Shown piece by piece: positions 1 to 16,787 of a stretch of DNA of 64,000 nt. This stretch comes from Chromatiales bacterium (GTDB lineage Bacteria; Pseudomonadota; Gammaproteobacteria; Chromatiales; Chromatiaceae). How positions within the stretch are numbered: position 1 is the first letter of the stretch; every line of letters begins with the position of its first letter. The translations under genes and the position numbers were made by a program. The notes beneath the pieces are model-generated. The model ran no database searches, was not told where the DNA came from, and saw only the letters and a program-made list of their open reading frames with translations. The stretch lies in assembly GCA_028284585.1 (NCBI GenBank), contig JANQRK010000008.1, positions 1,695 to 65,694 on the forward strand, written 5' to 3'.

Positions 1-3000
1 TCAGTGACTTGGCATCGAGCACCGAGAGGTTGAATGCCTCGACGCTGATGTCTGCGTCGGCATCTGAGGTAATCAGCTCACTGTCCGTCACATAGGCCCG
101 TGCTGTGCTCAGGAGCTGGTTGTTTGCAATGACCCCGCCCCGCGAGCCCGAACCGCCAGAGCTGGAGGTGTTTTCGACCGTGCTCTCGTCCAGCGCCGTG
201 ATGCGTGCCATCTCGGTGGCGGTCACCGTGATGCCGCTGCCGGCGGTGATCAGGCTGTCGTCGATGAAGGCCTCGGTGCGGGCATCGACGTCATTGCGCG
301 CAATCAACCCGAAATTATTCTTGGCGGTGCCACCCGAGAGGCCGACCAGGGTGCGCACTGCTTTACCGATACTGCCCAGCGCGTTGAACTCGTCGACGCG
401 CTGCCAGATGCCGAAGTTCGTGTAGTCCGTTGTGCTGAGGACCTGCGTGGTGCCGTCCGCACCCATATAGCGGAAGATATCGCCCTCTTCGAGATCGTCA
501 TTCGGATCGAGGTCGGCGACATTCTTGCCGATGCGCACCTGGTCGCCGAATTCCATCGACGCGGTGCCGGACTCGGTGGTGAACTGGTAGTCCTGGAGTA
601 CCGTCGAGATGGCCTCGTCGACAATGCTGAAGCCGAGCGTATTGGTCTCGCTGGCCTCGGGCTCCATGGAGGTGGTCGCATCGATAATCGCGCTGTCGGT
701 CGCCGTGACATTTACGGCCCCCTCCGCGACCGGCGGGTCACCAAAGGTACCCCGCTCATCGACGTTGTCCATGCTGGCCTGCACCTCTGTGGCGAGCAGG
801 TTCGAGGCCAGGATGAAGGAGGTATTGACGCCGTCCGCACCATAGGCCGCCGCGGCCGCAGAGGTCGCCTGGGTATCTACCCGCGCCGTAATCAGCGCTT
901 CATTCATCGCCGTGACGTTCACATCGCCTAGGACATCCAGGTCGGAATCCACGACCGTTGCCATCACCCTGGCCGGATTGGCCGTGCCGATCGCATCGAT
1001 CAGGGCATCGATGCCCTGTGACAAGACATCCTGCGACTCGTAGCCGATGGTGTTGTAGGCGAGCATCACGCCGACTGACTCGGAGCCGGTCGAGACCGCG
1101 GTACTGTTGGTGGCGGTGATGGTCGACGAGTTCGTGGCGCTGACCGCAAAGTTGCCGGTAGCACCGCCACCGGCAACGCCGGCATCGACAGTGCTGTCCT
1201 CCACCGTCGCCAAGGCACTGCTAAGGATACCGTTGGTGGCGATGACGCCATTGTTGGCGGTCGATGTGCCTTTGCCGAAGATATTGCCGCCGGACGACTC
1301 GGCATCGGTGTCGGCAGTCGCTGTGATCTCGGCGTCGACGCTCGCCGTGACCGCGATATCGCCGGATGCAGTGCGTGCCGCGACATTGCTCAAGCGCGCC
1401 TCGACCTCGGTGGAGACTTCGTTGCGTACCAAAACGCCGCCGTAGGACAGCGAATTCGACGGCAGAAAATTATTGCCCTGCGGGATCAGGTCGGTCTCGA
1501 GGATCTCCTTCCAGAGATCGAGATTGCCGAAGTCCTCGTCGGCGAGGTCGAGATTGCGATTACTGCCGACGAACTCGTAGACCCGACCCGGCGATCCACC
1601 CTCGTCCGGGTCGGCCGCGAAGTCGGTGGTGAGGAATACGCTGTCGCCGAACTCCACCAAGGTGGTGCCGACCAGCTCGTTGCCGTCGGCGTCGAACACC
1701 ATGGTGCCGTCGGTCGAGAAGTCCGCGTCCTCTAAGCCGGCGATGGCCGTCCCGAGCAGGTTGGCACCGCCATCGCTTGACGTAATCGACGACGAGACCA
1801 GCTTGGAGTTGGAGAAGATGCCGGCGCTATCGCTCGCGTTGACCGTGATGCTGCCAGCGGCAAACACGGTCTCGGGCGACGCGGCCCCTGCGGTCTCGAT
1901 GTAGGCACGCGCCGAGGTGTTGGTGCGATTGGCCGCGATAGAGCCACTGACCGCCACACTGGCGACGCCCGCTGCGCCGAACAGCGCATCGGCAGTCGAA
2001 GAGGCTGCGTTGCTGACCGTCGCGTTGATCGCCGGTGAGGACTCGGCGTCGACGACGATGTCGCCACTGGTCGAGACCTCCGTGTCGACGATGAAGGCGC
2101 TGGTGTTACCGCCGTTGCTCGCGACCAGCTGGTCGAAGCCGACCACCACGTCACCGAAGCCCTCACCGACGGTCGCGCCGGTGGGGTTCGCGATTTCGAT
2201 ACCGATGGCATTATAGGCAAAGGCACCGCTGCCATTGCCGGTGACCGCGCCCGAGGTCGAGGACCCGGTCTTGGCCGTTGCCGTGATCAGCGCGTCATTG
2301 CTGGCCTGCACCTCGACGCCGCCGTCGGTCTCGACGAGGCTGTCGAGGATACTTGCCGTGATGTCACCGCCGATGATATTGGTCGCGATGGTCCCGTTGA
2401 AGGTCAGCTCGAGCGGATCGATCTGGGCACCGCCGCTATCAAGAATCTGTGCGTCGGTGAATGCCACTGCCTGGATCGCGCTGACCGCAGTGACGGCGAG
2501 CCCGCCGGACGCTACGGAAATCAGGCTGGAGTTGCCGTCGGTATCGTCGATGGTCGCCGATACCGAGCGCACGATGTCGTTGACCGCCGTGGCCGAACCC
2601 AGCTCCAACGGAAAGGTCAGCGCGCCGGGATCGAGCTGGAACTCCGATGAGGTGGCAGTGAGCTGGGCGGTGTCGCTGGCGCTGAGGTTGACGCCGGCAG
2701 CACCATCTATTTGCACCTCTGAGCCGGCGATGGACGCACTGGTCCCGCCGGTCACGGTGTTCTCCGCGCGCTTGGCCGTCGCCGTATAGGTCGCCATATT
2801 ACTGGCCTCGACATTCAGGCCATCGGCATTGATCTGCGCATTGGTGATACTGGCGGTTGCGGTGTCGCTGGCCGTGGTGACGTGTTGGCCGTACAGATCG
2901 GAAACGATGGTGCCGGCCGTCCCACCACCCGCATCATCGGCAATGCTCGCCGAGACGCTGGTGACACCGGCGTTGGTACTGCTGGTTCCAGATACTGTGG

Positions 3001-4606
3001 CAATGCCATTGGTGGCGTCACCAATGGCAGAAGTCGCCGAACGGGTCAGATCGATGGCCGAGCTGGCGTCGCTCAGATCGAGCTCGGTCAAATCAATGAG
3101 ATCGGCGCTGTCCTCGCTCGGGTCGTAGTCGATACGCACCGCAGAGGCGTCGGCGGCGTTCAAGCTCAAGCTGGTGTCGGCCACCACGGCGACGCCGCCC
3201 GCGATCGTGGCACTCGCGGTATGCGTACCGGTCACACTGGTGTCGCCATCGTCCAACAGACTGGCATCTTGGACCAGCACAGTGTAGAGACCGGAGACGT
3301 CGGCCGTGATGCCGACGACGCCACCGCTTAGCGCCGCATCGACCGCGACGCTCGCGTTGGCCTGATAGCTGAAATCGTCCAGCGTGGACTGACTGTCGCT
3401 GATATCGACCGAGGCATCCAACGTGATGTCGCCGGCCGCATCCAGGGCACCATCGACCACGATGGCCGCGTCCAGTCCGGTATCGACGTCGGCCGCGGCA
3501 GTGATGCTGACATCGCCAGCGGTCGAGGTGATGCTGGCGGTCTCGGTAAGGGTTACGCTCTCCGCGGTCGCGGAGAAATCGCCCGGCATACTCAGGATGG
3601 CATCGATTATCAGGGTATCGGTGCCGGTACCCAGGTCGATCAGCAGTGAATCAAATCCGGTTTCGAAGGTAACGAATTCGAAGGTGTCGGGCGTATCCGT
3701 GCTCTCGAAGGTGAAGACATCGCCGGACCTCGTCAGCGTCGCATTGTCGTCGCTGGCCAAGCTCAATAGGCCGAAGTCGAGCTCGATGGCGCTGACCGTC
3801 GCACCGAGAGGAATCGGTTCCAAGCCATCATAGCGCAGCGTCGCACCGTCCAAGACGACAACACCGGAATGGGGGCCGCTAAAACCGAAGGTCACGGTGT
3901 CATAGTGGCCGTCATTGATCTCCAGGGTATCGAAACCGCCGACGCCGCCGTCGAGCAGGCCGCTCGAGCCGGCACCTTGGTTCAGTACGAAGGTATCCTG
4001 GTTGTGCGCGGCGCCGAGCAGATTTTCCACCCCGCGGAAGCCGACGTGCTCGTTGAGGGTCCCGGCGTCGACGCCTGTGAGTTCCCAGAGGCTGTCCGTG
4101 GCATCGCCGGCCAGGGCATCGTCGCCGCCCCGGCCGTCGAAGGTGATCACCAGAGAACTCAGATCGTGTTCGAGACCCAGATCCAGGGTCAATAGATCAT
4201 CGAGCTCAGATCCCGTGATGACGACCTCGCTGACCGCGACCAATTGCCGTTGGGCGATTATTGGGGTCTGGGCATCCGTGTTATCCAGGATTTGGAGCAC
4301 CGGCGTGCCCGCATGTTCGACCAACCTCAGCGTAAGGTCGAAAGGGTTGTCGGCTTGTGCCGCAAAGCTCAGGGGGTCGGCTGACAGCAGCAGCCGGGGT
4401 TCGAGCGCCTCGAACTGAATCTTGGGGTGGCCCGGCAATGACCGTCGGATCGGGGGAGCCACACGCGGCCCTTCACGCCCTTTGATGCCGCCGCCCGGCC
4501 TGAGGAAAGGGGGTGTCGCTAGGGTCCGGCGGCCGGTTCGCCACAGTCGACTGCAAGCGGCCCGGAACGGCGTCTTGCCAGTCGCAGACACAAACGGGTG
4601 CGCCAT
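1..4606 (-). CDS. Giant LEPR-XLL-motif extracellular/surface protein, N-terminal part (>1535 aa, continues beyond left edge)
   Basis: Manual translation: ATG at 4606 with GGGGAAGAG RBS, then ...IQFEALEPRLLLSAD... (about 4380-4420), Gly/Asp-rich segments (FDGRGGDDAL, LDGGVGGFDTL) and long A/S/V/I/T/D-rich sequence. The ORF track lists no minus-strand ORF in this frame anywhere in 1-4606, consistent with no stop codon; spot checks agreed. Confidence 0.92.
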   Translation of the reverse strand, partial: MAHPFVSATGKTPFRAACSRLWRTGRRTLATPPFLRPGGGIKGREGPRVAPPIRRSLPGHPKIQFEALEPRLLLSADPLSFAAQADNPFDLTLRLVEHAGTPVLQILDNTDAQTPIIAQRQLVAVSEVVITGSELDDLLTLDLGLEHDLSSLVITFDGRGGDDALAGDATDSLWELTGVDAGTLNEHVGFRGVENLLGAAHNQDTFVLNQGAGSSGLLDGGVGGFDTLEINDGHYDTVTFGFSGPHSGVVVLDGATLRYDGLEPIPLGATVSAIELDFGLLSLASDDNATLTRSGDVFTFESTDTPDTFEFVTFETGFDSLLIDLGTGTDTLIIDAILSMPGDFSATAESVTLTETASITSTAGDVSITAAADVDTGLDAAIVVDGALDAAGDITLDASVDISDSQSTLDDFSYQANASVAVDAALSGGVVGITADVSGLYTVLVQDASLLDDGDTSVTGTHTASATIAGGVAVVADTSLSLNAADASAVRIDYDPSEDSADLIDLTELDLSDASSAIDLTRSATSAIGDATNGIATVSGTSSTNAGVTSVSASIADDAGGGTAGTIVSDLYGQHVTTASDTATASITNAQINADGLNVEASNMATYTATAKRAENTVTGGTSASIAGSEVQIDGAAGVNLSASDTAQLTATSSEFQLDPGALTFPLELGSATAVNDIVRSVSATIDDTDGNSSLISVASGGLAVTAVSAIQAVAFTDAQILDSGGAQIDPLELTFNGTIATNIIGGDITASILDSLVETDGGVEVQASNDALITATAKTGSSTSGAVTGNGSGAFAYNAIGIEIANPTGATVGEGFGDVVVGFDQLVASNGGNTSAFIVDTEVSTSGDIVVDAESSPAINATVSNAASSTADALFGAAGVASVAVSGSIAANRTNTSARAYIETAGAASPETVFAAGSITVNASDSAGIFSNSKLVSSSITSSDGGANLLGTAIAGLEDADFSTDGTMVFDADGNELVGTTLVEFGDSVFLTTDFAADPDEGGSPGRVYEFVGSNRNLDLADEDFGNLDLWKEILETDLIPQGNNFLPSNSLSYGGVLVRNEVSTEVEARLSNVAARTASGDIAVTASVDAEITATADTDAESSGGNIFGKGTSTANNGVIATNGILSSALATVEDSTVDAGVAGGGATGNFAVSATNSSTITATNSTAVSTGSESVGVMLAYNTIGYESQDVLSQGIDALIDAIGTANPARVMATVVDSDLDVLGDVNVTAMNEALITARVDTQATSAAAAAYGADGVNTSFILASNLLATEVQASMDNVDERGTFGDPPVAEGAVNVTATDSAIIDATTSMEPEASETNTLGFSIVDEAISTVLQDYQFTTESGTASMEFGDQVRIGKNVADLDPNDDLEEGDIFRYMGADGTTQVLSTTDYTNFGIWQRVDEFNALGSIGKAVRTLVGLSGGTAKNNFGLIARNDVDARTEAFIDDSLITAGSGITVTATEMARITALDESTVENTSSSGGSGSRGGVIANNQLLSTARAYVTDSELITSDADADISVEAFNLSVLDAKSL

Positions 4607-5022
4607 ACTCTTCCCCCTCGTCAACATTCCAGCCGCAAGATCGAATCCGGCTCAGTCAGCAGCAGCCGGCGGAAGACGCACACCCCGTCATCGACGGCGG
4701 GACCGGGCGCACCCAGCCGTCAGCGCAACCTACACTGCAGCGATACTCCGCCCAGACACCACCGCGTCACGCAGGGCTTGACGTGCCATCAGCCGATAGA
4801 CCGGACAGTTGCAATCTGGCACCGCAAAGGACGGTCCGTTGGGCCAGCTGAAGGTAGAGGGATCGCTATCCTAGTTCGAGGTTATTCTATGCTCAGCTTC
4901 CGAATTTCTTTCCTAAAGGATAGCGGCAAAACTATCGAATGCAATCCGCGGGATGCCCTGATGTGCACTCGGACTAGGCGCCGAGTCGAGACCTATTTGA
5001 GCAGTGCGGGCTATAAATAAAA

Positions 5023-5060
5023 TCAGTAAAAACTGAATTTTACAGACTACATTCAATGTA
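5023..5060. promoter_or_regulatory. Two short palindromes in an AT-rich patch upstream of the giant gene
   Basis: TCAGT-AAAA-ACTGA (5023-5036) and TACATT-C-AATGTA (5048-5060). Confidence 0.35.
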
Positions 5061-5086
5061 ACTTAGGAAGAGCTGCACGCGGGCTG

Positions 5087-5899
5087 CTAATCGGCGACGG
5101 TAGGCAGAAAGCGAATACCGCAACGTACACCGGCCGGTACGCGAAACTCGGTATTGGGCAGTACCAATCGAACGCCGAAGGTGTCGCTGGCCGGATCGAT
5201 CACGTTATCCACCACGCTGACGGTAGCAGTCTGGACCTCGGCACCCGGATAGCGGGGACTTACCTCGGCCTGCTGTCCTGCCTTAACGGCCCCAAAACGC
5301 TCCACGGGGAGGAGGACTTCGACATTCAGCGGATCGACTTCGGCGATCCGCAGTATCGTCGTGTTCTCGACCGACTCGCCGGGCGAGAGCAAGCGTTCGA
5401 CCACGATGCCTGCCACCGGACTGACCAGCGTCCTGCGCTTCAAGATCTTGCGCGCCCGTTCGAACTCCAGCTGGGCCAGCTTGCGCTGGTGTTGGGTCTG
5501 ACGCAGCCGCAACTGGGCGCGTCGCGCCTCGGTCGCCGCACGATCTTTCTCGGTCAAAGAGATCACCTTTTTCTCGAACAGATTCTCGATCCGCGCGAGT
5601 TCGCGCCGCGTCAAACCGACATCAGCGCGCCGCTCGGCCAGTTCGGCATCCATTTGCGCCCTCGCCTCGGCCAAGGCGACGCTAGCCTTCTCGACGTCCG
5701 CTTCCAACTGGACCACCACTTGCCCCGACTCGACCACATCACCCCGAGCGGCCAGGATGGACTCGACGATGCCCTCTTCGCGGGTGCTCAGGTCTATCAC
5801 CGAGCTGGGCTCGATCAGGCACCCGAAGCTCTTATCGTCCGACGCCTGACCGGCCGGCACCAAGACGCCGACGAACAACAGAACATGCCATTTCTTCAA
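5087..5899 (-). CDS. HlyD/RND-type periplasmic adaptor (membrane fusion protein), 270 aa
   Basis: Signal-like N-terminus, lipoyl-hybrid half motifs (GIVESILAARGDVVESGQVVVQL; LVSPVAGIVVER), coiled-coil hairpin, IDPASDTFGVRL beta-barrel; TTG start. Confidence 0.9.
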   Translation of the reverse strand: MKKWHVLLFVGVLVPAGQASDDKSFGCLIEPSSVIDLSTREEGIVESILAARGDVVESGQVVVQLEADVEKASVALAEARAQMDAELAERRADVGLTRRELARIENLFEKKVISLTEKDRAATEARRAQLRLRQTQHQRKLAQLEFERARKILKRRTLVSPVAGIVVERLLSPGESVENTTILRIAEVDPLNVEVLLPVERFGAVKAGQQAEVSPRYPGAEVQTATVSVVDNVIDPASDTFGVRLVLPNTEFRVPAGVRCGIRFLPTVAD

Positions 5900-5925
5900 A
5901 ATTCTAGACCCATGCGTGATTGCCC

Positions 5926-7962
5926 TTACTCGGCTGTGCCGCCGAAGGCAAGTAACTCATTCAACTGCTCGTCGGCGCGTAACAGCCTTTTGCGAAGCCG
6001 CGAGTTGCGTCGCTCCAGTTTACGTTGCAGATGGCCGAGCAGTAGCCGACCCGCGGTCCCCATAACCGGCTTGGCACGCGAACGCGCCGGACCGAACAAG
6101 CGATCCAGCCAGTGTTTCGAGCACCCCTGCGCCAACTCGTCCTGCAACGACACCAGGTATTCATGCGATCCAGGGTCACCCTGGCGCCCGCTGCGGCCGG
6201 TCAACTGTCGATCGATACGCCTTGCTTCGTGAAACTCGGTCACTATCACGTGCAAACCACCCGCTTTGGCGGCAGCCGGTGACAATTTGATATCCGTGCC
6301 CCGGCCGGCCATGTTGGTCGCCACGGTCACGCACCCGGCCTGTCCCGCCTGCGCGATCACTTGTGCCTCTTGCCGGTCCTGACGTGCATTAAGGATTTGA
6401 TGCGGAATACCCGCCGCCCGCAACCGCTCGCCGAGCACTTCGGATGCACCAAGGGTTCGGGTACCCACCAACACCGGGCGTTGCTCGGTACGCAATTCGC
6501 AAACCCGCGCCACCACCGCATCCCATTTGTCATCCAGGGTGCGATACACAGCCCCGGGCATGGCACGGCGCTGCGAGCGCCGATGGGTGGGTACTTCCAC
6601 GACATCGAGCCCGTAGACCGCCCACAGCTCGTTCACCACTTCCCGTGCTGTTCCGGTCATTCCGGCAAGCTTCAGGTAGCGCCTAAAGAAGCGTTGGTAG
6701 CTGATACGGGCCAAAGTGCGTGGTGTGCTGGTGATATCGCATGCCTCCTTCGCCTCGATCAGCTGGTGTAGATTACGCTGCCAGGAGCGATCAACCATCG
6801 TGCGGCCGGTGTTTTCATCAATGATTTCGATGCGGCCGTCCCGGACCAGGTAGTGAATGTCCCTCTCGTACAGGTGTAACGCGCACAGCGCCTGGCCCGC
6901 CAACTCTTCGCGGCGACGAGTCGACGACCAAGGGCCACCCAGCGATGCCGCCAGCGCTCGCAAACGGGACTTGCCCGCATCAGTGAAAGTGACGTCGCGA
7001 TGGGCGGCATCGATAGTAAACTCACGCTCCGGTGTGAACTGCTCAGCAACCCAAAGGGCTTGTTGATACATATCCTGATTCACTTCGCCTTGATCACGCC
7101 GTGAGATGATCAATGGCGTGCGCGCCTCATCCACCAACACGCTGTCCGCCTCATCGACGATCGCATAACAAAGGCCTCGCAACATCAGGCGCTGTGATCG
7201 CGGCTGCTCGGTATGTAGGCCTTCCAGCTCCATTCGCAATCGACCGTGCGACGTATCGGTCACTAGCCGATCCCTTAGATAATCGAAGACCAGTTGCTTG
7301 TTGGTGCAGTAGACGATATCGCAGGCATAGGCCGCCTGGCGTTCAGTCGTGCTCATCGCCGCGGTGACGCTCCCCACGGTAAGCCCCATGTAGTCGTAAA
7401 CGGGGGCCATCCACTGGGCATCGCGGGTCACCAAGTAATCGTTCAAGGTGACGATGTGAACAGGCACACCGGCGAGCGCCGATACCCCTGCCGGCAAAGT
7501 CGCCGTCAGGGTCTTGCCTTCGCCGGCCTCCATCTCCGCGACCACGCCGCTGTATATCAGCCATCCACCGAGGAGTTGCACGTCGAAGTGCCGCATGCCC
7601 AGGGTGCGAGACGCAACCTCTTGAACCATGGCGAAACCACGCGCAGCGTCTTTGCGGTGGTTGCCGGTAGCGGACAGACGCCGGCGCAGCAAGCTGATCT
7701 CGGCCTTTAGGGCCTGATCCGACAACCGACGCAGTTGCTCCGCCTCTTTGTGTATCAAGGGCAGAATTTTGCAATTCAGATCGGCACGGCGACGCATGAG
7801 TTGGCGTCTTTGCCCGCTGATCGCTGCGACGGCGCAATCAAGGGCGCCTAGGGGAGTTTCTGGTCGCTGTGGGTAACTGCCTAAGGCGACCCCTGGCCGC
7901 AATGCTGAGCTGAACATCGACTTATACCGTGCGTTGGAAATCTGCCAAATCTCGCGGCCCAT
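5926..7962 (-). CDS. SecA-like DEAD ATPase paralog lacking the C-terminal part (accessory SecA)
   Basis: MEAGEGKT Walker A (7510-7524 for GEGKT), DEADSVLVDEARTPLIIS, GMTGTA, ATNMAGRGTDIKL, RRIDRQLTGRSGRQGDPG; ends about 70 aa later. Likely start is ATG 7917 (MFSSALRPG). Confidence 0.93.
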   Translation of the reverse strand: MGREIWQISNARYKSMFSSALRPGVALGSYPQRPETPLGALDCAVAAISGQRRQLMRRRADLNCKILPLIHKEAEQLRRLSDQALKAEISLLRRRLSATGNHRKDAARGFAMVQEVASRTLGMRHFDVQLLGGWLIYSGVVAEMEAGEGKTLTATLPAGVSALAGVPVHIVTLNDYLVTRDAQWMAPVYDYMGLTVGSVTAAMSTTERQAAYACDIVYCTNKQLVFDYLRDRLVTDTSHGRLRMELEGLHTEQPRSQRLMLRGLCYAIVDEADSVLVDEARTPLIISRRDQGEVNQDMYQQALWVAEQFTPEREFTIDAAHRDVTFTDAGKSRLRALAASLGGPWSSTRRREELAGQALCALHLYERDIHYLVRDGRIEIIDENTGRTMVDRSWQRNLHQLIEAKEACDITSTPRTLARISYQRFFRRYLKLAGMTGTAREVVNELWAVYGLDVVEVPTHRRSQRRAMPGAVYRTLDDKWDAVVARVCELRTEQRPVLVGTRTLGASEVLGERLRAAGIPHQILNARQDRQEAQVIAQAGQAGCVTVATNMAGRGTDIKLSPAAAKAGGLHVIVTEFHEARRIDRQLTGRSGRQGDPGSHEYLVSLQDELAQGCSKHWLDRLFGPARSRAKPVMGTAGRLLLGHLQRKLERRNSRLRKRLLRADEQLNELLAFGGTAE

Positions 7963-8007
7963 TCTTCGCTCGGCCCCTCGCGTTGGACTGCCTGCGCGCG
8001 ATCGCCG

Positions 8008-10155
8008 CTATACCCCGAAATGGCTCAGAAACAACTGTCTGAGACTGCGGTACCACTGGCGTGCCAATGGCTCGACGCCATGATCAAAGCGCACATAGAC
8101 GCGATTGCCGATGCGCTCAATCGCCTGTAGACCCGGAACGGCCAAATCGAGCTGAAATACCCTCTGCAGCGTCTTCAATCCCGCGGGATCCTGTGGATCA
8201 AGCGCTAACGCACCACCGCCTTCGGTCGCCAAGGCCGCAGTCGGCAGACGATCCGCAGCCCCTGGCACAAAGCGGCTGATACTGGCGCGCATCGGTTCTG
8301 CTGTCCAGTCCGCCAAGCGTACATCAACCCGATGGGTTTGCTCGCGAACCAGCCCGATCTGCTCTTGATCGACGACAACTCTCACCGCGATATCTTCGGG
8401 TGAAAGAACATAGCCGACCAATTCGCCGCGTCGCAGGAACCGGCCCGGTAGATCTTCGGCATTGGGCACAATGAATACGCCGTCGGTCGGGCTAAGGATA
8501 ACCAGTGCCGCCAGGCGCTCGCTGGCGCGTGTCAACTCGGCGCGCACGCTCTCGATCTCAGCACGAATGACATCGGCACGGGTCGGATTGGCGAACTCTT
8601 GCTGCATATACCTGGCATCCAACTCCTCCAATCGGCTTTGCAGTAAGCGCACGTTCGCTTGCTGCAAAGTCGCTTCACAACGCACCAGGGGTTGGCCCTT
8701 GCGTACCAAGTCATTCGGTTGCGTCATCAGCTCCGCTACGAAGCCCTCCGCCTCGCTGCGTACCAGCGATTGTTGAGGCATCCAGACGACGCCTTCCGCA
8801 CGCGTCCACAAGGGCGCAGGAACGAGCAGCAGCAACCCGAGCATGCCACCCAGGATACACCCGGTCGACACCAGGGCACGTGCCCGAGTACGTTGCAACA
8901 CCGGGCTATGAAACACAAACCAAAGGCTCTTGAGCGACGGATAGACCACCATCACAACAACAGCCCAAATCGCCAAGATTAGCCCCAGCACAAAGAACTT
9001 GCCCGAAACAAACAGGACAATGACGAACACGATAAACAGGCGATAAACGAAGGAGGCGATGCCATAAATCAAGAACCAAGCCCGCTCGCCGGGCGCGGTT
9101 ACCGGTGAGCTGGCTTGCTCGGCCTTGAAGAGATAGCGCTGCACCAGGTACCCCAAGTACTTTTTGGAGCGCGTGGCAAGATTGGGGATCTCTATGGTGT
9201 CCGCGAGGACATAGTAGCCATCAAATCTAAGCAAAGGATTGCCGTTGAAAAGTAGCGTCGAAATACTGCCAATGAGCACGACATTGAAGGCGAAGGTACG
9301 AACCAATCCCGGCTCGACCAGCAACCAGATCATCAAGGCCAATGCCGCCAGCAGTAGCTCGACCATGATCCCTATTGCGCCCACGATCATGCGTTGGTGT
9401 TTGTCGCTGAACGCAGCCGCCGATGACGCCTCGACATAGGGTATGGGGGCCAGGACCAGCAAGATGATCCCCATCTCGTGTACCTCTCCCCCCCATACCT
9501 TGACCGCATAGCCGTGGCCGAACTCGTGCACCATCTTGATCAGGGGATAAGCCGCCCACAGCATCAATAGATTCTGGAACGTCAGCACACGATCCACGAC
9601 ATTGTCGGTCAATTCGCTCCAGTGCATACCGGCCAAGACAGCACCGGCACCGACGACGAGTAGCCACGCAAAGAACCCGAACCAACTAAACAGAGGGCGA
9701 ACCAACGGCAAGGTGGCGGACAAGAATCGTTCAGGATCGAGCAAGGGGAAGCGAATGGCCAAGGGATTTGTGAACCGCTGCCGCCACTTGGCGCGCCGCT
9801 GACGTTGGCCGCGCTGAAATACCTCTCGCGTATCCGGTATCACGTCCGATTGTAGGACGTCGGCCGCGTGTAGCTGGCCTAGCAGCCGCAGCAGTTCATC
9901 TTGCGTGGGGGCATGCTCACCGAGTTCGCGTTCGGCCAGTTCCCAAACCTGCTGGAGTGTGCGGTGCCCGTCGAGCAGGCCGATCACGAAGTTGGCCGCT
10001 GGGGTGAAGCGGAACGAGCGTTCGTTGGATGGATCGCGCAGCACGTACCAGATTTGGCCTCGGTACTCGTGTCGATCGAACTGCGCATGCCGCCGAATGC
10101 TCGGCTTCAGCGCCGCCACGCGGTACCAAGATGTGCTGGTCAGTGCCTCCCGCAT
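8008..10155 (-). CDS. PqqD/RRE-like domain + site-2 (M50) metalloprotease + HlyD-like adaptor fusion, 715 aa
   Basis: HEFGH (9514-9528) and NPLLRFDG (9217-9240) M50 motifs, multiple TM helices, C-terminal lipoyl-hybrid/coiled-coil region; N-terminal about 90 aa resembles the PqqD pattern (YVLRDP...FRF...LLDGHRTL). Confidence 0.88.
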   Translation of the reverse strand: MREALTSTSWYRVAALKPSIRRHAQFDRHEYRGQIWYVLRDPSNERSFRFTPAANFVIGLLDGHRTLQQVWELAERELGEHAPTQDELLRLLGQLHAADVLQSDVIPDTREVFQRGQRQRRAKWRQRFTNPLAIRFPLLDPERFLSATLPLVRPLFSWFGFFAWLLVVGAGAVLAGMHWSELTDNVVDRVLTFQNLLMLWAAYPLIKMVHEFGHGYAVKVWGGEVHEMGIILLVLAPIPYVEASSAAAFSDKHQRMIVGAIGIMVELLLAALALMIWLLVEPGLVRTFAFNVVLIGSISTLLFNGNPLLRFDGYYVLADTIEIPNLATRSKKYLGYLVQRYLFKAEQASSPVTAPGERAWFLIYGIASFVYRLFIVFVIVLFVSGKFFVLGLILAIWAVVVMVVYPSLKSLWFVFHSPVLQRTRARALVSTGCILGGMLGLLLLVPAPLWTRAEGVVWMPQQSLVRSEAEGFVAELMTQPNDLVRKGQPLVRCEATLQQANVRLLQSRLEELDARYMQQEFANPTRADVIRAEIESVRAELTRASERLAALVILSPTDGVFIVPNAEDLPGRFLRRGELVGYVLSPEDIAVRVVVDQEQIGLVREQTHRVDVRLADWTAEPMRASISRFVPGAADRLPTAALATEGGGALALDPQDPAGLKTLQRVFQLDLAVPGLQAIERIGNRVYVRFDHGVEPLARQWYRSLRQLFLSHFGV

Positions 10156-10171
10156 GTTGTGACTCCGCGAT

Positions 10172-12073
10172 CTACGGCTTCCAGGACCACAGCCAGAATC
10201 GCAGCCAGTGGATCAGCTTGTGGGTCCAGATCCAAACCTGCTTGCGCTGACCGATCTGGATCTTGCCGACGCCCTCCATTCCCGGACGAAGTCGCGACGA
10301 GGACCCTTCTAGGTTTGCTTCAACCCTGAAATAGTTGCCCCCTCCCTTAGCACTGGAGATCGGGGTGATCTTGGTGATCCGCATGGGCAAAATCTCGGTG
10401 CTCAATCCAGCTAGCACCAACTGACCTACCTGCCCCGGCTGCACCTGCGAGGCATCTCGCTCATCCACGTTGAGAATGACCCGATAGCTGTTCAGGGGTG
10501 CGATCTCGAACAAGGTATCGCCGCGTGCCACAGGTACGCCCAGTGACTGACTCATATCACCGGATACCACGACACCGTCGAACGGTGCCTTCAATCGGGT
10601 GCGCGCCAACTGCTCGTCTAGCAGCAACAATTGACTGTCGGCCTGGTCGATCTGCGCCTGTAACACACGTACTTGCGCACGATCGCGGTCTGCAAGCGCC
10701 TCGCTGTATTCGCGCTGTCGTTGTTCTTTCTGGCTCGCCCACTTGGCCCGTTGTAGGCGCAGATCTTTGTCTTCGAGCGTACACAAGACGTCGCCGGCCT
10801 GGACCACATCACCTGCCCGGTAGAACGCCTGGTCGACATAGCCATCGAGCAGTGCGGTGACTACCCGTTGAATCGAACCCTGCAGATGGGCATCAGCGGT
10901 AACCCGATAATCGCCTTCGGCGAAGTACGCGTAGGCCGCGACACAAGTCAGCAATGTTGCGGCCAACTTGAGTCCAAGGTGCCGGGGTCCGATCAACCGC
11001 CCTCCGAATCCCACTACAGAATCCCAGAGCTTGCTAACGATCCAGCGGTCGTCGCGGCGCTTGACCTCGAGGATTGGGCCGGCCAAGGTCGCAATGTTGC
11101 GACACAATTCCACAGTCGCTTGATCGAAAGATTGTCCCAGGGGACGGGCCAAAGTCATTGCGCCGACAAGCCGATCACCGTCTACCAAGGGGATGGTGCA
11201 AACGCCACCCAGGGTCGCCTGCTCCAAGAGCTGCGTCTGGGCACGAATCTGGACCAGGCTCGCCTCCGACTGATCGGGTGCTGGGCTGACCAAGACCCTT
11301 GCCTGCTCTATGGCTTCGTCCATCGCAGCACCGATCGAACGATGCAAGTTGGTCTTCTCGTTGATTGCCGCACTATGCGACCAGGCTGACACCCGAACTC
11401 GTCGGCCCGACCCGAAGCCCAGCGCGGCCCATTCGCAATCCAAATGCGTGGCAAGCTCGGTGGCCAGGGCGGTCACCGCAGCGCGAAAACTTGCTTGCTC
11501 CAAAGGCACAGCGATCAGTTCGAGCAGCGTCACCAGCCGCTCCTTGGAAGTGAAGGCTTTGCGCCTGACCAAGGCCTCCAACCATCCGCAGCTCCACTGC
11601 AATTGGCGCATGATGGAGCCTAGCTCGGTCGAGTCGCGGTCCTTGACTTCGACGGCGGCAACCCCGTGCAACAGTTCATCGACGACGATAGGGAAAGCTA
11701 CCGCATCTGGTCCACGGCGATCGCTGACTGTCGTCGAGTCACTACTACGTACGACACCCCGCCGCTCTGCCATGGCCAACTCGGCCGCCGCCACCAACAG
11801 AGGACTGCCGGATCCACCAACCGGCCAATAGGCGAGCGGCCGGTACGGGCCCACTCCGGCCTTGCCGAGGACGACAGCTGCATGTTGTACACCGCCGGTG
11901 AAGCGGCACAGCAATTCCAACCAGGCGGCCGCGAAGGCCTCGGGCGAAGATGCCCGTTGGAATTCGACCCAAGCTTGTTTATCGATGTAAGGTGCATCCG
12001 CCGCCGCGGTGACCTCACCCTCGCACTCGACCGAGGCAGAATCGTGCGACGTATCCTCAAGCCCAGTTGCCAA
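10172..12073 (-). CDS. GAF-domain-containing HlyD-family adaptor, 633 aa
   Basis: Two GAF-like segments (AFPIVVDELLHGVAAVE; CTIPLVDGDRLVGAMTL), one TM (LGLKLAATLLTCVAAYAYF), then hybrid motif, coiled coil, LKAPFDGVVVSGD, LRPGMEGVGKI. Confidence 0.88.
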   Translation of the reverse strand: MATGLEDTSHDSASVECEGEVTAAADAPYIDKQAWVEFQRASSPEAFAAAWLELLCRFTGGVQHAAVVLGKAGVGPYRPLAYWPVGGSGSPLLVAAAELAMAERRGVVRSSDSTTVSDRRGPDAVAFPIVVDELLHGVAAVEVKDRDSTELGSIMRQLQWSCGWLEALVRRKAFTSKERLVTLLELIAVPLEQASFRAAVTALATELATHLDCEWAALGFGSGRRVRVSAWSHSAAINEKTNLHRSIGAAMDEAIEQARVLVSPAPDQSEASLVQIRAQTQLLEQATLGGVCTIPLVDGDRLVGAMTLARPLGQSFDQATVELCRNIATLAGPILEVKRRDDRWIVSKLWDSVVGFGGRLIGPRHLGLKLAATLLTCVAAYAYFAEGDYRVTADAHLQGSIQRVVTALLDGYVDQAFYRAGDVVQAGDVLCTLEDKDLRLQRAKWASQKEQRQREYSEALADRDRAQVRVLQAQIDQADSQLLLLDEQLARTRLKAPFDGVVVSGDMSQSLGVPVARGDTLFEIAPLNSYRVILNVDERDASQVQPGQVGQLVLAGLSTEILPMRITKITPISSAKGGGNYFRVEANLEGSSSRLRPGMEGVGKIQIGQRKQVWIWTHKLIHWLRFWLWSWKP

Positions 12074-12238
12074 AGCTTTCCCCCACCCGCCAGCGGTAAA
12101 CTTTCGTCACTCCACATTAGCGCCAGGTGGCAGAACAGCACGGATCGCGGACGCGGCGACCACCCGTAGATGCGCGCCCGCGAGACCTAAGATTCACCGG
12201 CAACTGAATGCTAGAGGAATCCCTGGGGCTTCACCAGT

Positions 12239-12263
12239 CCGGCAGTGAGGGGAACACTGCCGG
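12239..12263. other. GC-rich hairpin, possible terminator or 5' UTR structure
   Basis: Perfect 9-bp inverted repeat CCGGCAGTG-AGGGGAA-CACTGCCGG between the M12 peptidase gene and the secretion cluster; no clear U-tract. Confidence 0.3.
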
Positions 12264-12598
12264 CCCAACCTTGCTTGACCCAAGGGGCCTGCTACCGCAA
12301 CCGGGGGCGTCAGCATCACCTGACGACACATGGGACACCCAGACTTGGATCATTTTGAGAGTTGTCTTTCGAGACAATACGCTAGCGTGAAGAATCTAGC
12401 GCCGAATACAGGCGATGGCGCTGAATTGCGGGGCATACTCATGCGGCATGCGGTGAATGTGACCACCTTGGCCGCATGGCCTCCCAAGAGGATTTGCCTC
12501 TTGGGAGGGTACGGCCAAGGCATCTTTCATTGCCCTATTCGCAAGATCACGCTATCCGAAACAGGGTCTCAAATGCAGCTGCGTTCGTAGTGACAGGT

Positions 12599-14767
12599 TC
12601 AAGGCGCTGCATCGGCCTTGACATTGTCAATGATGACGACAGTCCTTTCGTCGGAATAGGTCTTTTTGTTGTTGAATCCACCAATGGCGACCCTGTGCTC
12701 GCCGGCCGAGAGTTCGCCGAGGTCGACTTGGAACCTCTGCCAACCGGACGTCTTCCAAGGACCACCGTTTCCGTCACCCCTGATCCGCTTCAGAAAGCTA
12801 CCACCAGGTGCACCAATCAGGTTTCCATCGACAGACAGAAGTGCATCACTGTACTCGTCGCTCTCATAACCTGGGGCCTGGGCTATGCGATAGTCAAAGG
12901 ATAGGGTTACCTTGCTCGGGCTACTCAAGGAAAAGGTCCTCTGCCATCCACCCGACATATCCTGGACTGCGCGGTTGTCCCGGCCGCCCAGCACCACTGC
13001 TAGGAAGCCGTCGCCATTTCGCCAGGCGGCATGTCTTCCCGAGGCGTAACGCGGGTGATTGGTATTGCGGAAAGCATCAGCGACGAACTCGAAGCCCTCG
13101 GTGTCTTCAGTGAAGTCCGAATGAAAAATTGCCGGCCCGTCGTCACCGCGGACGTTGATTCTTACCTCTGCCGTATTGTTCGAAGGATTGTCGTCATTGT
13201 CCGCTGCCGAGTTCACGGTGCTTGTCAGCGTATCCGCTGCCGGCCCGGCTTGTAATCGCATGACGACCGTCCGTGTGGAACTGCTGTCAATGTCGCCAAA
13301 GTCACAGCTCACCTCCGACTGACTCTCAAAACACTGCGCCCCGCCGTCGGCGACGTCGATCATCGCCAAACTCTCTGGTATCGAGATCGCAGCCGTTACA
13401 TTTGTCGCGACGGCCACACCGCTGTTTCTCACCTCCACTCGATACTCGAATTCGCTCAGGACCGTCGTTTCGATCGGGTTCGTCGGAATGATCACTCGAA
13501 CGTCCGTGGTCGCAGGAGGCGGCTGATCAGGGTCGTCAACTTCTGTGATACAGACCGCGCGATCAATATGCGGTTGCATCTGGTCCAAACTGCACTGAGA
13601 GAATTGATCGCTGCCATTGCCGAACGGATTCATAATGAAGTTCCCTGCCGTATTCGCACAGGGTGAGCCGCCCTGATTATCGTGCGGCGCACCGAAGTTG
13701 TGGCCCATCTCATGCGCGACTATCAAGGCTCCCGCCGTGCCTCTACCAGTGGTTTGACTCAGCCCGACACCAAAGGCCTCGCGACACAAGGTGCCGACGT
13801 AGGCAATGCCGACGACGCCACCATTTAGATCTCTCCCGGTAAACAGGTGCGCCAAACCAGGATTGACAAAGTCGCTAGCGGCCACAAAGTCGCTGAACTG
13901 GTCCAGAAGAGTGCCGGCTTGCGAGGAACTCAATCCTCCGTTGCTCCGCAATGCACGAATCTCAGTGACATTGATTTGAACACCCACCTGCTCAGAGTAG
14001 ATGCCGTCAACAATGTTCATACGGGCCACCACAGCGGCATCCGGATTGCTGGGATTGGCGTCGACAAACTGCCTGTCCGCGACCACGGCGATGTCGAGCT
14101 TTCGAGCCGCCGCCGGGAGAGCCTGTCTCAATGTACGCAGCTCGTCCACCAAGCCTTGGTAATCATCCATAGGCCTCGCGCTTGGATGTACCGCACAGCT
14201 TCCCGTACAGGACTCGGTATCTGAAAGCCGATATATCACTGGATACGGCTGGCGCTGTCGTGCCTTTGGTGCCGCAGCGCCTTGCTGATCATCCAGCATC
14301 GGTTCCACTCGGTCGGATGTATCGATGATGTACAGCTCCTCGCCATCCCACATGGTTCCGGAGATCTGCTCTCCCGCACGATTGATGCGTACCCAAGACC
14401 CATCGATGCCTTCGATGTAGCCCTCGTAGGCCGTCATGGATTTTTCGAGTCGCTGTCTCTGCTCTTCGGGCAGATCAGCAATCAACCGGGTATTCGGCTT
14501 GAGGACTACAGCGAACCGCTTTCCAAAGGCCTCGAAAGTCAGCGTGGCCTCAGATGCCTGCTCGGCTTGCTGCGCCGCTTGGGCGTTATCAGTTGATAAG
14601 GAGGGCGGTAGGCCGAACTCCACCGATTGCATGGGCTCATGATGGAGTATGCGGAAATCTTCATCGACGGTGAGGGCACCTTCGTGAACACCATGAGCGA
14701 GTGAGGCTCGCCCTTGAATACCGATACACAGTATTGCTAACAAAATATACGTTGTAGATCTTCTCAT
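12599..14767 (-). CDS. Secreted reprolysin-like (M12B) zinc metallopeptidase with DUF11/Ig-like and C-terminal beta-sandwich domains
   Basis: Signal peptide, prodomain, HEMGHNFGAPHD zinc motif, Met-turn FIMNP, DUF11-like NSAADNDDNPSNNTA; ATG 14767 has a GGAG RBS. Confidence 0.9.
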   Translation of the reverse strand: MRRSTTYILLAILCIGIQGRASLAHGVHEGALTVDEDFRILHHEPMQSVEFGLPPSLSTDNAQAAQQAEQASEATLTFEAFGKRFAVVLKPNTRLIADLPEEQRQRLEKSMTAYEGYIEGIDGSWVRINRAGEQISGTMWDGEELYIIDTSDRVEPMLDDQQGAAAPKARQRQPYPVIYRLSDTESCTGSCAVHPSARPMDDYQGLVDELRTLRQALPAAARKLDIAVVADRQFVDANPSNPDAAVVARMNIVDGIYSEQVGVQINVTEIRALRSNGGLSSSQAGTLLDQFSDFVAASDFVNPGLAHLFTGRDLNGGVVGIAYVGTLCREAFGVGLSQTTGRGTAGALIVAHEMGHNFGAPHDNQGGSPCANTAGNFIMNPFGNGSDQFSQCSLDQMQPHIDRAVCITEVDDPDQPPPATTDVRVIIPTNPIETTVLSEFEYRVEVRNSGVAVATNVTAAISIPESLAMIDVADGGAQCFESQSEVSCDFGDIDSSSTRTVVMRLQAGPAADTLTSTVNSAADNDDNPSNNTAEVRINVRGDDGPAIFHSDFTEDTEGFEFVADAFRNTNHPRYASGRHAAWRNGDGFLAVVLGGRDNRAVQDMSGGWQRTFSLSSPSKVTLSFDYRIAQAPGYESDEYSDALLSVDGNLIGAPGGSFLKRIRGDGNGGPWKTSGWQRFQVDLGELSAGEHRVAIGGFNNKKTYSDERTVVIIDNVKADAAP

Positions 14768-15190
14768 TGGCACTCCAAGTTGGTGGATTGGGAAAGTGAG
14801 ATCCAGTCATATTTTTATTTCATTTAGATAGCTCCACGGCCGACCAGATACGTCCGAAAAATTGATTTCCACAGCTCTGCTTCACGGCCACCGATGGATA
14901 ATTCGCCAATTGGCAACATTGAGATATTGGAGAGTCATGCCACGGATAAGCGAAAAACCGAGATAATTGATAGTTGCTAGGAATATGGACTAGCGAAATC
15001 AACGAATACTCTCCACATCGATGTCCAATAAATGTCGTTCGGCGTCATTCAGATCGATCGTCGAAAACAAACCCAGTTCGAACATCCAGTTAGAGGTACC
15101 GCGGTCGTGCGCCAATGCATCACGCTCGCTTGGATGACCCATGGGTCAAAGCGACCTTAGCGCTTCAACAGGCATTCGGTCTGTTGGATT

Positions 15191-15418: not shown

Positions 15419-15454
15419 CCTAAGGAACTTCTGAAAAATCAGAGGTTCCTTAGG
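15419..15454. repeat. 16-bp near-perfect palindrome overlapping the kinase stop codon
   Basis: CCTAAGGAACTTCTGA-AAAA-TCAGAGGTTCCTTAGG, one mismatch. Confidence 0.7.
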
Positions 15455-16787
15455 TGCCTTTGCCGGAGTGCGCCACCTGAGCTTCGGCGGAAGCTGTGGC
15501 CAGGGGCCAGTCCAGGCGAAACCGCGCACCGCCGAGTGGGCTATCCTCGACGGTTACCCTCCCCTTGTGCTTGCGAGCAATGCGGGCAACGATTGCAAGG
15601 CCGAGTCCAGTGCCGCCGGAGATACGAGAACGGCTTGGATCCAGTCGGGTGAAGGGTTCGAAGATACGTTTGTGTTGGTAAGTTGGAATACCTAGGCCGT
15701 CATCGTCAACGGCTAGCCAGAACTCGTCGCCCCGTTTTTCCCAAGCAATCCGTACCCGACCCTGCGCAAAGCGAGACGCGTTACTGACCAGGTTCGATAA
15801 GGCGCGTTGAAAATACACCGGATCCACCTGGGCGCGCAGCGGAATGGTCATAGCTGGCTGGGTAGTGAATTCAATATCCGGGTTCGACTCTCGCTGATTC
15901 TGGACAATCTGCTCGACCAGCGGGTCCACTGCAACCCATTGCAGGGTAAGCAGTGGCGTGCCGGGTTGGAGACGGACATAGCCCAGCACCTCGGCCACGA
16001 GGTTGCGCAAATCGTCGATTGCTTCGTCCATGTCATTCCAGGCCATGCCACGGGGCTCATTCACGTCGACAGCAGCGATCTCGACAGCAAAACTCAAGCG
16101 GGAGAGCGGTGCCCTGAATTCGTGAGCCACGGCTTGCAATAGTTCTTGCTGTTCCTGCAGTAGCTGCTGGATCTCCGCAGCCATTCGGTTCAATGCCAAG
16201 GCAAGATCACCGATGGCATCGGGATAGCGATCATCGGCGCGCACATGCCAATTGCCTTGGCCGATAGCGCGCGCTGCCGACTCCAATGACTTCAACCGCC
16301 TTACCACAGGTATTGTCAGGAGGACACCGAACAAGCCGATGACCAAGGTTGCACCAATCGCAGCAGTCAGAATGTCCGAGGGATAAGGGTCTGCCAATGG
16401 CTCGGGCGGCATAATATGGGCCACCGTCGGGGTACCAGGGATCTTTAGAGTTAATTTGGGGCCGCCCTCGTTCTCGGTTACTACCAGGGGCTCACCCGCT
16501 GCAAGCACCGCCCTGATATCTTCGGGCCAGTCAGCTTCATCCAGCGGTGCCAGAGAGACCTTGAGACGAGACTGCTTGAAGTAGCGCTCTATCTCCTCGC
16601 TCCATTTGCCGCGATCCGTCGCAGCCAGTCTCTGCACCATACTGTGTCCGGTTGTTTGCAGTTCTGCCAGAAGTTCCTCAGTGTCTGGCCGGCCGGGCGG
16701 GTAACGTAACAACCAGTACACAATCGCGGATGCCGCCAGCAAGGCAAGCAGCATGCCGGCGAAAAACCGGAAAAAGAGCTGGATCAT
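15450..16787 (-). CDS. Sensor histidine kinase, RstB/CpxA-like (2 TM, HAMP, HisKA, HATPase)
   Basis: AVAHEFRAPLSRL H-box, NLVSNA, VDDDGLGI, GGTGLGL; ATGA overlap with the regulator. Confidence 0.95.
   Translation of the reverse strand: MIQLFFRFFAGMLLALLAASAIVYWLLRYPPGRPDTEELLAELQTTGHSMVQRLAATDRGKWSEEIERYFKQSRLKVSLAPLDEADWPEDIRAVLAAGEPLVVTENEGGPKLTLKIPGTPTVAHIMPPEPLADPYPSDILTAAIGATLVIGLFGVLLTIPVVRRLKSLESAARAIGQGNWHVRADDRYPDAIGDLALALNRMAAEIQQLLQEQQELLQAVAHEFRAPLSRLSFAVEIAAVDVNEPRGMAWNDMDEAIDDLRNLVAEVLGYVRLQPGTPLLTLQWVAVDPLVEQIVQNQRESNPDIEFTTQPAMTIPLRAQVDPVYFQRALSNLVSNASRFAQGRVRIAWEKRGDEFWLAVDDDGLGIPTYQHKRIFEPFTRLDPSRSRISGGTGLGLAIVARIARKHKGRVTVEDSPLGGARFRLDWPLATASAEAQVAHSGKGT

Follow-up and report, generated by a model that had tools for sequence, protein, structure and literature searches.

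Background

How bacteria manage to export proteins of 5,000-36,000 residues in the absence of a Sec signal is an unsolved question. Nor has any pathway been assigned, since 2004, to the LEPR-XLL motif and the planctomycete motif, which are carried by proteins that include the largest known in bacteria. Studholme et al. suggested in 2004 (as cited in PMC8567305) that the planctomycete motif, RRLxxExLExRxLLA, is an N-terminal signal for export. The same question is raised by a stretch of 64,000 nucleotides from a Chromatiales bacterium (assembly GCA_028284585.1, contig JANQRK010000008.1, positions 1,695 to 65,694), hereafter the window, in which four closely spaced genes precede the gene of a giant LEPR-XLL protein, P0005. 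These four genes, hereafter the cassette, encode a GAF-HlyD adaptor (P0001), a fusion of a PqqD-like domain, an M50-type protease and an HlyD adaptor (P0002, the M50-HlyD protein), a shortened SecA paralogue (P0003) and a small secreted HlyD adaptor (P0004). In this study, we provide evidence that the cassette is very likely dedicated to LEPR-XLL proteins, and we propose that it is probably an envelope-spanning machine for the export and processing of proteins with a LEPR-XLL leader, working without an ATP-binding cassette (ABC) transporter.

Results

A four-gene cassette beside a giant LEPR-XLL gene

Domains were assigned by Pfam and NCBIfam profile searches. The initial annotation had described five co-directional genes (GAF-HlyD, M50-HlyD, SecA paralogue, small HlyD and giant) with no adjacent ABC, resistance-nodulation-division (RND) or TolC gene, and a giant protein with an N-terminal LEPR-XLL motif and no Sec signal, and all of this was confirmed. 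The five genes share the minus strand (Table 1), with gaps of 16, 45 and 26 bp among the cassette genes and of 459 bp before the giant gene. The domain search of the 8 kb upstream of the cassette found an M12B protease, a two-component system and a GNAT protein, and no ABC, RND or outer membrane factor (OMF) gene; the window holds no ABC transporter of the HlyB/PrtD/LssB type, and no OEP (TolC-family) gene adjoins the cassette in it. A scan of positions 4300-12800 gave no promoter-like sites, and terminator-like sites were fewer than in shuffled sequence.

Inside the window P0005 comprises 1542 aa, and its frame stays open to the contig end, giving a protein of at least 2107-2115 aa whose C-terminus lies beyond that end, so that C-terminal features are known from relatives only (closest orthologue 6,703 aa, locus L003). 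The LEPR-XLL model (NF012209) matched residues 71-92 with 32.9 bits against a cut-off of 17, and with 40 bits in the genome search. The basic N-terminal leader ends in FEALEPRLLLSAD and is followed by Ala/Ser/Thr/Val-rich tandem repeats of the LktA type (NF012206). Sec export of the giant protein was considered and rejected, there being no hydrophobic signal core in its first 120 residues, where the best 11-residue Kyte-Doolittle mean is 1.35, compared with 2.8 for the N-terminal signal of P0004 (VLLFVGVLVPA). The 5' end of the neighbouring giant gene falls within 21 loci, and in all of them the protein opens with a short basic segment that leads into (F/Y)ExLEPRxL(L/F)SA(D/G); of the 20 residues before this motif, about 5 are on average Lys or Arg. 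At the other end, repeats-in-toxin (RTX) repeats were found within the C-terminal 1,200 aa of six of seven cargos. Some LEPR-XLL giants end in matrixin/reprolysin-like metalloprotease, Calx-beta or lectin-like domains (L007:4245-7841, L019:4061-7657), thus the cargo is not purely adhesin-like.

Co-occurrence of the cassette and LEPR-XLL proteins

A single sample of 401 genomes, drawn evenly from the phylum, was searched for LEPR-XLL, M50-HlyD and SecA, with M50-HlyD scored as present at E <= 1e-20 and as close-type at E <= 1e-120. LEPR-XLL was found in 42 genomes and M50-HlyD, as fusion proteins of about 700-820 aa, in 97 (24%). M50-HlyD was present in 41 of the 42 LEPR-positive genomes and in 56 of the 359 LEPR-negative ones (Fisher p = 7e-28), the sole LEPR-positive genome that lacks it being 86% complete; conversely, 32 of the 38 genomes with a close-type M50-HlyD had a LEPR-XLL match. 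Distant M50-HlyD proteins (150-250 bits) likewise adjoin LEPR frames, in genomes G173, G342, G096 and G127, even in cassettes that have no SecA. For giant genes upstream of the cassette, the genome search located the LEPR-XLL start at a distance of 25-58 kb within the same open frame, and LEPR-XLL frames adjoining the cassette reach 8,389 aa in Roseobacter sp. GAI101, 9,147 aa in Motiliproteus, 11,543 aa in Neptuniibacter, 15,167 aa in a Solemya symbiont and 19,202 aa in Sulfuritalea. The proposal of a conserved, dedicated module tied to LEPR-XLL and lacking an ABC or RND pump is thereby upheld, both by the co-occurrence and by cargo genes that abut the cassette in complete genomes, and the check for a cluster that usually occurs without such substrates, which the initial annotation had named as refuting, did not refute it.

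The gene order was followed in a profile scan of species-representative genomes with M50-HlyD, which found it in 293 species, the order being taken from the best 80 loci and the neighbour counts from a clustering of all neighbouring open reading frames (ORFs) in 81 loci. In the best 80 loci nearly all cassettes run GAF-HlyD, M50-HlyD, short SecA, small HlyD, an order that spans Alpha-, Beta-, Gamma- and Deltaproteobacteria and Myxococcota; in Betaproteobacteria the small adaptor is instead found upstream, together with an OEP gene. The arrangement is far beyond chance, since it recurs in essentially all of some 80 loci from different species. Three contigs found by exact protein carry the same four genes beside proteins of 6,703, 19,026 and more than 2,696 aa, and one of them has a TolC-family gene inside the cassette. 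Among the 81 loci an OEP gene adjoins the cassette in 18, and no type I ABC exporter is found among the conserved neighbours. The lack of TolC noted at first thus holds for the surroundings of this cassette and not for the system as a whole: relatives have such a gene beside theirs, and six OMF genes lie elsewhere in this genome. Further recurrent neighbours are SapC (9 loci) and DUF3467 (7 loci) proteins, histidine kinases and GGDEF-EAL proteins; SapC-family genes (e.g. L072:12294-13154) and small DUF3467 genes (e.g. L037:8379-8729) stand inside or beside the cassette.

The M50-HlyD fusion and the adaptors

P0002 consists of a domain resembling PqqD and the RiPP recognition element (RRE; RiPP, ribosomally synthesized and post-translationally modified peptide) at about residues 18-100, a seven-helix membrane domain of site-2-protease type and a periplasmic adaptor at 446-715. 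Residues 41-404 match the daptide intramembrane HExxH metalloprotease model NF041824 (E = 2e-47, 162 bits, below the equivalog cut-off of 300), and the Pfam matches to Peptidase_M50 (17.7 bits, gathering cut-off 27.2) and PqqD (residues 37-100, 18.3 bits, cut-off 23.4) are weak; HlyD_3 is matched at 462-634. The zinc-ligand motifs are HEFGH at 210-214 and NGNPLLRFDG at 304-313 (NGNPLLRFDGYY at 304-315), and none of the 59 homologues differs at H210, E211, H214, N304 or D312, thus the protease is very probably active. An AlphaFold2 (AF2) model built on these homologues (mean predicted local distance difference test score, pLDDT, 84.7) places both motifs, HExxH and NPxxxxDG, in helices. It has three beta-strands (25-50) followed by three helices (52-97), and then seven membrane helices between 158 and 444, an odd number which would leave the N-terminal domain in the cytoplasm, the adaptor in the periplasm and HExxH near the cytoplasmic end of its helix. 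The predicted fold, taken with the weak sequence scores, suggests for the N-terminal domain the topology of an RRE. A profile of the first 110 residues run against all PDB sequences returned PqqD as its two top, marginal matches (3g2b at E = 0.06, the next at 0.44). Foldseek, queried with the whole model, related the periplasmic domain to MexA, AcrA and MacA (E about 1e-10); its matches are dominated by the adaptor domain and uninformative on the membrane domain.

The two other adaptors flank this fusion and the short SecA. P0001 has a GAF domain at residues 199-336 and HlyD_3/HlyD_D23 at 402-599 (TIGR01730 RND_mfp, 98 bits), that is, about 360 cytoplasmic residues, a moderately hydrophobic anchor at about 365-384 and a periplasmic adaptor with a coiled-coil hairpin, and its orthologue is the first cassette gene in 72 loci. 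P0004 matches HlyD_D23/HlyD_3 and TIGR01730 (108 bits). The small adaptor accompanies the cargo: the three LEPR-XLL genes of this genome each have a P0004 paralogue of their own immediately in front, the other two copies lying on contig C91 (Table 1).

The short SecA as an accessory part

The Pfam content of P0003 is SecA_DEAD, SecA_PP_bind and P-loop_SecA only. It aligns with residues 20-649 of the 871 of Thermotoga maritima SecA and with 34-604 of Bacillus subtilis SecA, and so keeps nucleotide-binding domain 1 (NBD1), the preprotein cross-linking domain, NBD2 and the start of the scaffold helix, while alignment and model agree that the helical wing domain, the two-helix finger and the C-terminal tail are missing; the last element of the AF2 model is a single long helix, 635-673. 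The ATPase motifs GEGKT (Walker A), DEAD, TGT and GRxGRQGDPG (arginine finger) are conserved. The protein scores below every SecA2 cut-off, has thousands of relatives of about 664 aa, and is additional to a housekeeping SecA encoded elsewhere, on contig C88. No SecY-like, SecY2 or accessory Sec gene was found among the neighbours in the 81 loci or in the window surroundings. Two motifs of the short subfamily fall outside the alignment with canonical SecA, an N-terminal GxYPER (Y30 and P31 invariant) and a C-terminal LAFxGxxE, at about residues 20-35 and at 671-678 of P0003; both are candidate docking sites for partner proteins.

The SecA paralogue is not universal. Two of the three cassettes of this genome lack it, and so do about 11 of the 42 LEPR-positive genomes, which have canonical SecA only, about 29 having the short SecA in a search that scores only two candidates per genome. 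Complete genomes with canonical SecA only include G173, G282 and G342. In every listed case of the 401-genome sample the short SecA abuts M50-HlyD, and the SecA-less cassettes that were fetched read (OMF), small HlyD, GAF-like HlyD, M50-HlyD and contain no other ATPase. The short SecA is thus a frequent and not an obligatory constituent, an accessory part. Its presence goes together with cargo length: all LEPR frames above about 4,600 aa are in genomes with the short SecA, and the median longest LEPR frame is 7,126 aa with it and 2,611 aa without it (Mann-Whitney p = 4e-4), lengths that are blurred by fragmented assemblies; in complete genomes the longest frames are 8,464-16,090 aa with and 3,939-4,385 aa without the short SecA (p = 0.005). 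Genome G306 was rejected as an example that pairs a SecA-less cassette with small cargo and a SecA-containing one with large cargo, its second cassette also having a SecA paralogue, with a cargo of 3,067 aa. Because a SecA-containing cassette can serve a protein of that size, the relation is one-sided: long cargo implies SecA, and SecA does not imply long cargo.

Other cassettes, exporters and neighbouring genes

The genome holds three LEPR-XLL proteins and three M50-HlyD/GAF-HlyD pairs, and only one short SecA. On contig C91, a cassette of GAF-HlyD, M50-HlyD and small HlyD without SecA precedes a LEPR protein of 3,344 aa; its small HlyD has a longest frame of 558 aa with a C-terminal SPOR peptidoglycan-binding domain. 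The second LEPR-XLL gene of this contig follows a lone small HlyD. PAS-GGDEF or hybrid-kinase genes come after both of these cargo genes, which hints at control of the two loci by cyclic di-GMP. No LEPR-XLL gene and no SecA were found near the third pair, on contig C115, which adjoins a divergent VpsR-like sigma-54 activator, a 225-aa protein of unknown family and a PEP-CTERM protein.

Classical type I secretion systems (T1SS) are also encoded. An ABC exporter of the LssB/LapB type (945 bits, above the cut-off) lies on contig C81, within a locus that has its own OMF gene and a 1,591-aa protein whose N-terminal sequence suggests a LapA-like adhesin; a second, HlyB-like exporter on contig C13 adjoins an ORF of 2,313 aa. 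Both loci thus stand beside a large cargo of their own.

In the window, the M12B protease upstream of the cassette has a DUF11 repeat and a C-terminal choice-of-anchor-J-like region, and was not found beside the cassette in any other locus searched. Kinases similar to the HAMP kinase of the window form a neighbour cluster spanning 8 loci, the window included.

Table 1. Positions of the cassette, its cargo gene and related features in the window and elsewhere in the genome
Feature	Position	Strand	Length	Basis or content
GAF-HlyD adaptor P0001	10172..12073	-	633 aa	Pfam GAF/GAF_2, HlyD_3/HlyD_D23
PqqD-like/M50-protease/HlyD fusion P0002	8008..10155	-	715 aa	Pfam, NCBIfam, AF2 model
Shortened SecA paralogue P0003	5926..7962	-	678 aa	Pfam, alignment to SecA, AF2 model
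Small secreted HlyD adaptor P0004	5087..5899	-	270 aa	HlyD_D23/HlyD_3, N-terminal signal
LEPR-XLL giant gene P0005, 5' part	2..4627	-		NF012209, NF012206 repeats
Secreted reprolysin-like (M12B) zinc protease	12599-14773	-		directly upstream of cassette
HAMP histidine kinase and OmpR-type response regulator	15450-17545	-		upstream of cassette
SecA-less cassette	C91:50690-57976 (locus L098:11878-19976)			response regulator-GGDEF-EAL gene in front
P0004 paralogue just upstream of a LEPR gene	C91:51511-50690			
Lone small HlyD preceding LEPR-XLL protein	C91:60921-67854 (locus L099)			LEPR-XLL protein of 2,003 aa
P0004 paralogue just upstream of a LEPR gene	C91:67854-67054			
Third GAF-HlyD/M50-HlyD pair	C115:4320-8242 (locus L100)			
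Classical LapB-type T1SS locus	C81:26263-36865			ABC, HlyD, 218-aa protein, 1,591-aa protein, OMF

Discussion

Proposed mechanism and alternatives

The most likely function of the cassette, and in our judgement a rather probable one, is leader-guided, TolC-coupled export with cleavage of the leader. The steps proposed here are all drawn from homology. They are built around the observed parts and their conservation, the intact catalytic motifs, the link to the cargo, the OMF genes that adjoin related cassettes and the lack of ABC genes in the loci. The PqqD-like domain of the M50-HlyD protein would bind, in the cytoplasm, the basic leader that ends in (F/Y)ExLEPRxL(L/F)SA(D/G), and the site-2-type zinc protease, with its active site near the cytoplasmic face, would cut the leader off as the chain enters, the closest analogy being the C39 peptidase of leader-dependent ABC exporters. 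An oligomer of the M50 domain is the candidate for the inner-membrane pore. The adaptor domains of GAF-HlyD, M50-HlyD and small HlyD could then form a mixed periplasmic sleeve docking on a TolC-family channel, encoded elsewhere in this genome, through which the unfolded chain would leave the cell, and calcium-driven folding of RTX-type repeats outside may help to pull it. The short SecA, which keeps the ATPase core and the polypeptide clamp and has lost the parts that engage SecY, may serve as an auxiliary motor for very long chains, feeding them in from the N-terminus, possibly during translation.

The most serious rival leaves export to a classical ABC-type T1SS encoded elsewhere, which would secrete the giants C-terminus first, while the cassette only cleaves the leader or tethers and releases the N-terminus, comparable to the control of LapA by LapG and LapD. 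RTX nonapeptide repeats in the C-terminal regions of six of seven cargos speak for it, as do the bona fide LssB/LapB-type exporter and the HlyB-like one of this genome and the fact that the protease is the only cassette enzyme with a clear substrate-directed activity; moreover, the authors of a recent Chlorochromatium preprint favour a T1SS/Sap-type, C-terminus-first route for such giants (bioRxiv 10.64898/2026.03.19.712371). However, three adaptors, accompanied in 18 of the 81 loci by a TolC-family gene of their own, are export hardware that a leader peptidase would not need, an ABC exporter is never a conserved neighbour of the cassette, the two classical T1SS loci here each have an adjacent cargo, and a SecA-type polypeptide motor would be left without a role. 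We therefore regard this rival as unlikely, while giving it more weight than the two that follow.

In Gram-positive bacteria, unusual large adhesins are exported by SecA2 systems, and P0003 is clearly a SecA homologue whose ATPase core and preprotein cross-linking domain are intact, thus a two-step accessory Sec route might be considered, in which the short SecA, like SecA2, hands the giant to SecYEG, and the adaptors and TolC serve the passage from the periplasm to the outside only. A SecYEG-dependent route is nevertheless unlikely because the elements that couple SecA to SecY, and to SecB (two-helix finger, wing and C-terminal tail), are missing from P0003 and the cargo has no hydrophobic signal core; with no SecY2 or accessory Sec genes among the neighbours and many LEPR-XLL systems lacking any SecA paralogue, the two-step scheme appears highly improbable. 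The cassette might, finally, be unrelated to the giant, maturing and exporting a small RiPP-like peptide or serving small-molecule efflux, with the giant as a passenger of a genomic island. The closest sequence family of the protease domain is indeed a daptide (RiPP) leader peptidase, and M50-HlyD occurs in many genomes without a LEPR-XLL match; yet no RiPP precursor or modification enzyme was found among the conserved neighbours in the 81 loci or in the window surroundings, and the two genes are found together in 41 of 42 genomes (p = 7e-28) and side by side across several proteobacterial classes and Myxococcota. Coincidental adjacency was excluded on the strength of these co-occurrence statistics, and we consider such an explanation scarcely credible.

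Several points weigh against the cassette as an ABC-less export machine. To our knowledge, no cassette protein is a known protein-conducting channel of the inner membrane, and we know of no site-2 protease that forms a pore. The short SecA is dispensable in many LEPR-XLL genomes, the SecA-less cassettes that were fetched show no other ATPase, and M50-HlyD is distributed more widely than LEPR-XLL: 56 of the 97 genomes that encode the fusion have no LEPR match, so that it probably serves other substrates or functions too. The PqqD-like assignment combines sub-threshold sequence scores with a predicted fold, P0005 is truncated by the contig end, and the gene of the OMF partner is absent from the cassette surroundings in the window. 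The RTX repeats of the cargo fit classical ABC secretion, C-terminus first, equally well, and two exporters of that kind are encoded here. All steps of the proposed system are, besides, predicted from sequences and models.

More tentatively, and as something possible rather than probable, we suggest that the cassette represents a distinct and widespread secretion system of diderm bacteria, the missing route for LEPR-XLL proteins and for planctomycete proteins with RRLxxExLExRxLLA. The fusion of RRE, site-2 protease and adaptor would act in it as receptor and portal, two further adaptors would lead to TolC, and a SecA reduced to its motor would thread chains of 5,000-36,000 residues N-terminus first, possibly during translation. 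If true, the ABC transporter of a type I-like system would here be replaced by a protease/adaptor fusion and a stripped-down SecA, the SecA motor would have found a new use away from the Sec translocon, and the peptide exporters would be joined by a second case of TolC secretion guided by a cleaved leader; annotation would also gain a rule that links an orphan signal to a machine.

Relation to published work

The hybrid secretion route proposed initially is new only in part: the locus and the same hypothesis were published in 2015, and the assignment of its cargo is new. In that in silico study, Kamneva, Poudel & Ward (PLoS One, PMC4452313) described a locus of GAF+HlyD, Peptidase_M50+HlyD, SecA_DEAD-only and small HlyD/biotin-lipoyl proteins, sometimes with an OEP gene and with no ABC transporter, exemplified by META1p2399-2402 of Methylobacterium extorquens AM1. 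They proposed SecA_DEAD as the ATPase and suggested that M50 may form a membrane pore, the biological role being "completely unknown"; cargo, giant proteins, the LEPR-XLL motif and a PqqD/RRE domain are not mentioned in PMC4452313, and our literature search found no later paper on "secondary SecA_DEAD".

The recent preprint on Chlorobium chlorochromatii (bioRxiv 10.64898/2026.03.19.712371) reports two proteins of 36,806 and 20,647 aa with LEPRxLL domains that are expressed and reach the partner cell, with sapC and tolC as gene neighbours; a secA gene gained by horizontal transfer, Cag_1676, belongs to the co-expression cluster of these giants. Its authors state that the giants "lack known signals" and propose a Sap/T1SS route, without a link to the M50/SecA cassette; Cag_1676 may, we suggest, be a short SecA that belongs to a cassette of this kind. 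Separate publications thus already cover the locus, the motif and the export of LEPRxLL giants, and what appears unpublished is the assignment of the locus to the motif, and so to a cargo, the putative leader-binding domain, and the way in which SecA is related to cargo length.

Comparison with known systems

The locus belongs to the "secondary SecA_DEAD / type-I-secretion-related" module of Kamneva et al. 2015, with which it shares the same four proteins, a SecA_DEAD-only paralogue beside canonical SecA, an occasional OEP gene and the lack of an ABC transporter; it differs in being tied here to LEPR-XLL proteins, in its documented SecA-less variants and in the relation of SecA to cargo length. 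The SecA2 of Gram-positive bacteria and mycobacteria is likewise a second SecA that serves a few unusual, often very large surface proteins, but it keeps the scaffold, wing and two-helix finger and works with SecY or SecY2, whereas P0003 stops after one scaffold helix and is found in diderm bacteria, its gene lying among those of adaptors. With the intramembrane leader peptidases of RiPP systems (daptide, NF041824; YydH/LiaK, NF058609) P0002 shares the HExxH and NPxxxxDG motifs and, putatively, an N-terminal PqqD-like domain, while its C-terminal periplasmic adaptor domain and its context of giant proteins set it apart.

Among exporters, the peptidase-containing ABC transporters (PCATs), such as CvaAB-TolC of colicin V, show the logic proposed for the cassette, in combining an adaptor and TolC with an exporter-borne protease that recognises and cuts an N-terminal leader. 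Their protease is, however, a cytoplasmic C39 cysteine peptidase and not an intramembrane zinc enzyme with an RRE-like domain, their motor is an ABC ATPase and not a SecA-like one or none, and their cargo is a peptide and not a chain of thousands of residues. With the T1SS of giant RTX adhesins (HlyB-HlyD-TolC, LapB-LapC-LapE) the cassette shares HlyD-type adaptors, a TolC-family channel and a cargo that is very large and rich in repeats, among them the calcium-binding RTX type, and that has no Sec signal. Its locus lacks an ABC transporter, whose place is occupied by a membrane metalloprotease and a SecA-type ATPase, it has three different adaptors where the T1SS has one, and the conserved signal of its cargo is N-terminal where that of T1SS cargo is C-terminal. 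The system is best filed as a variant of type I-like tripartite secretion.

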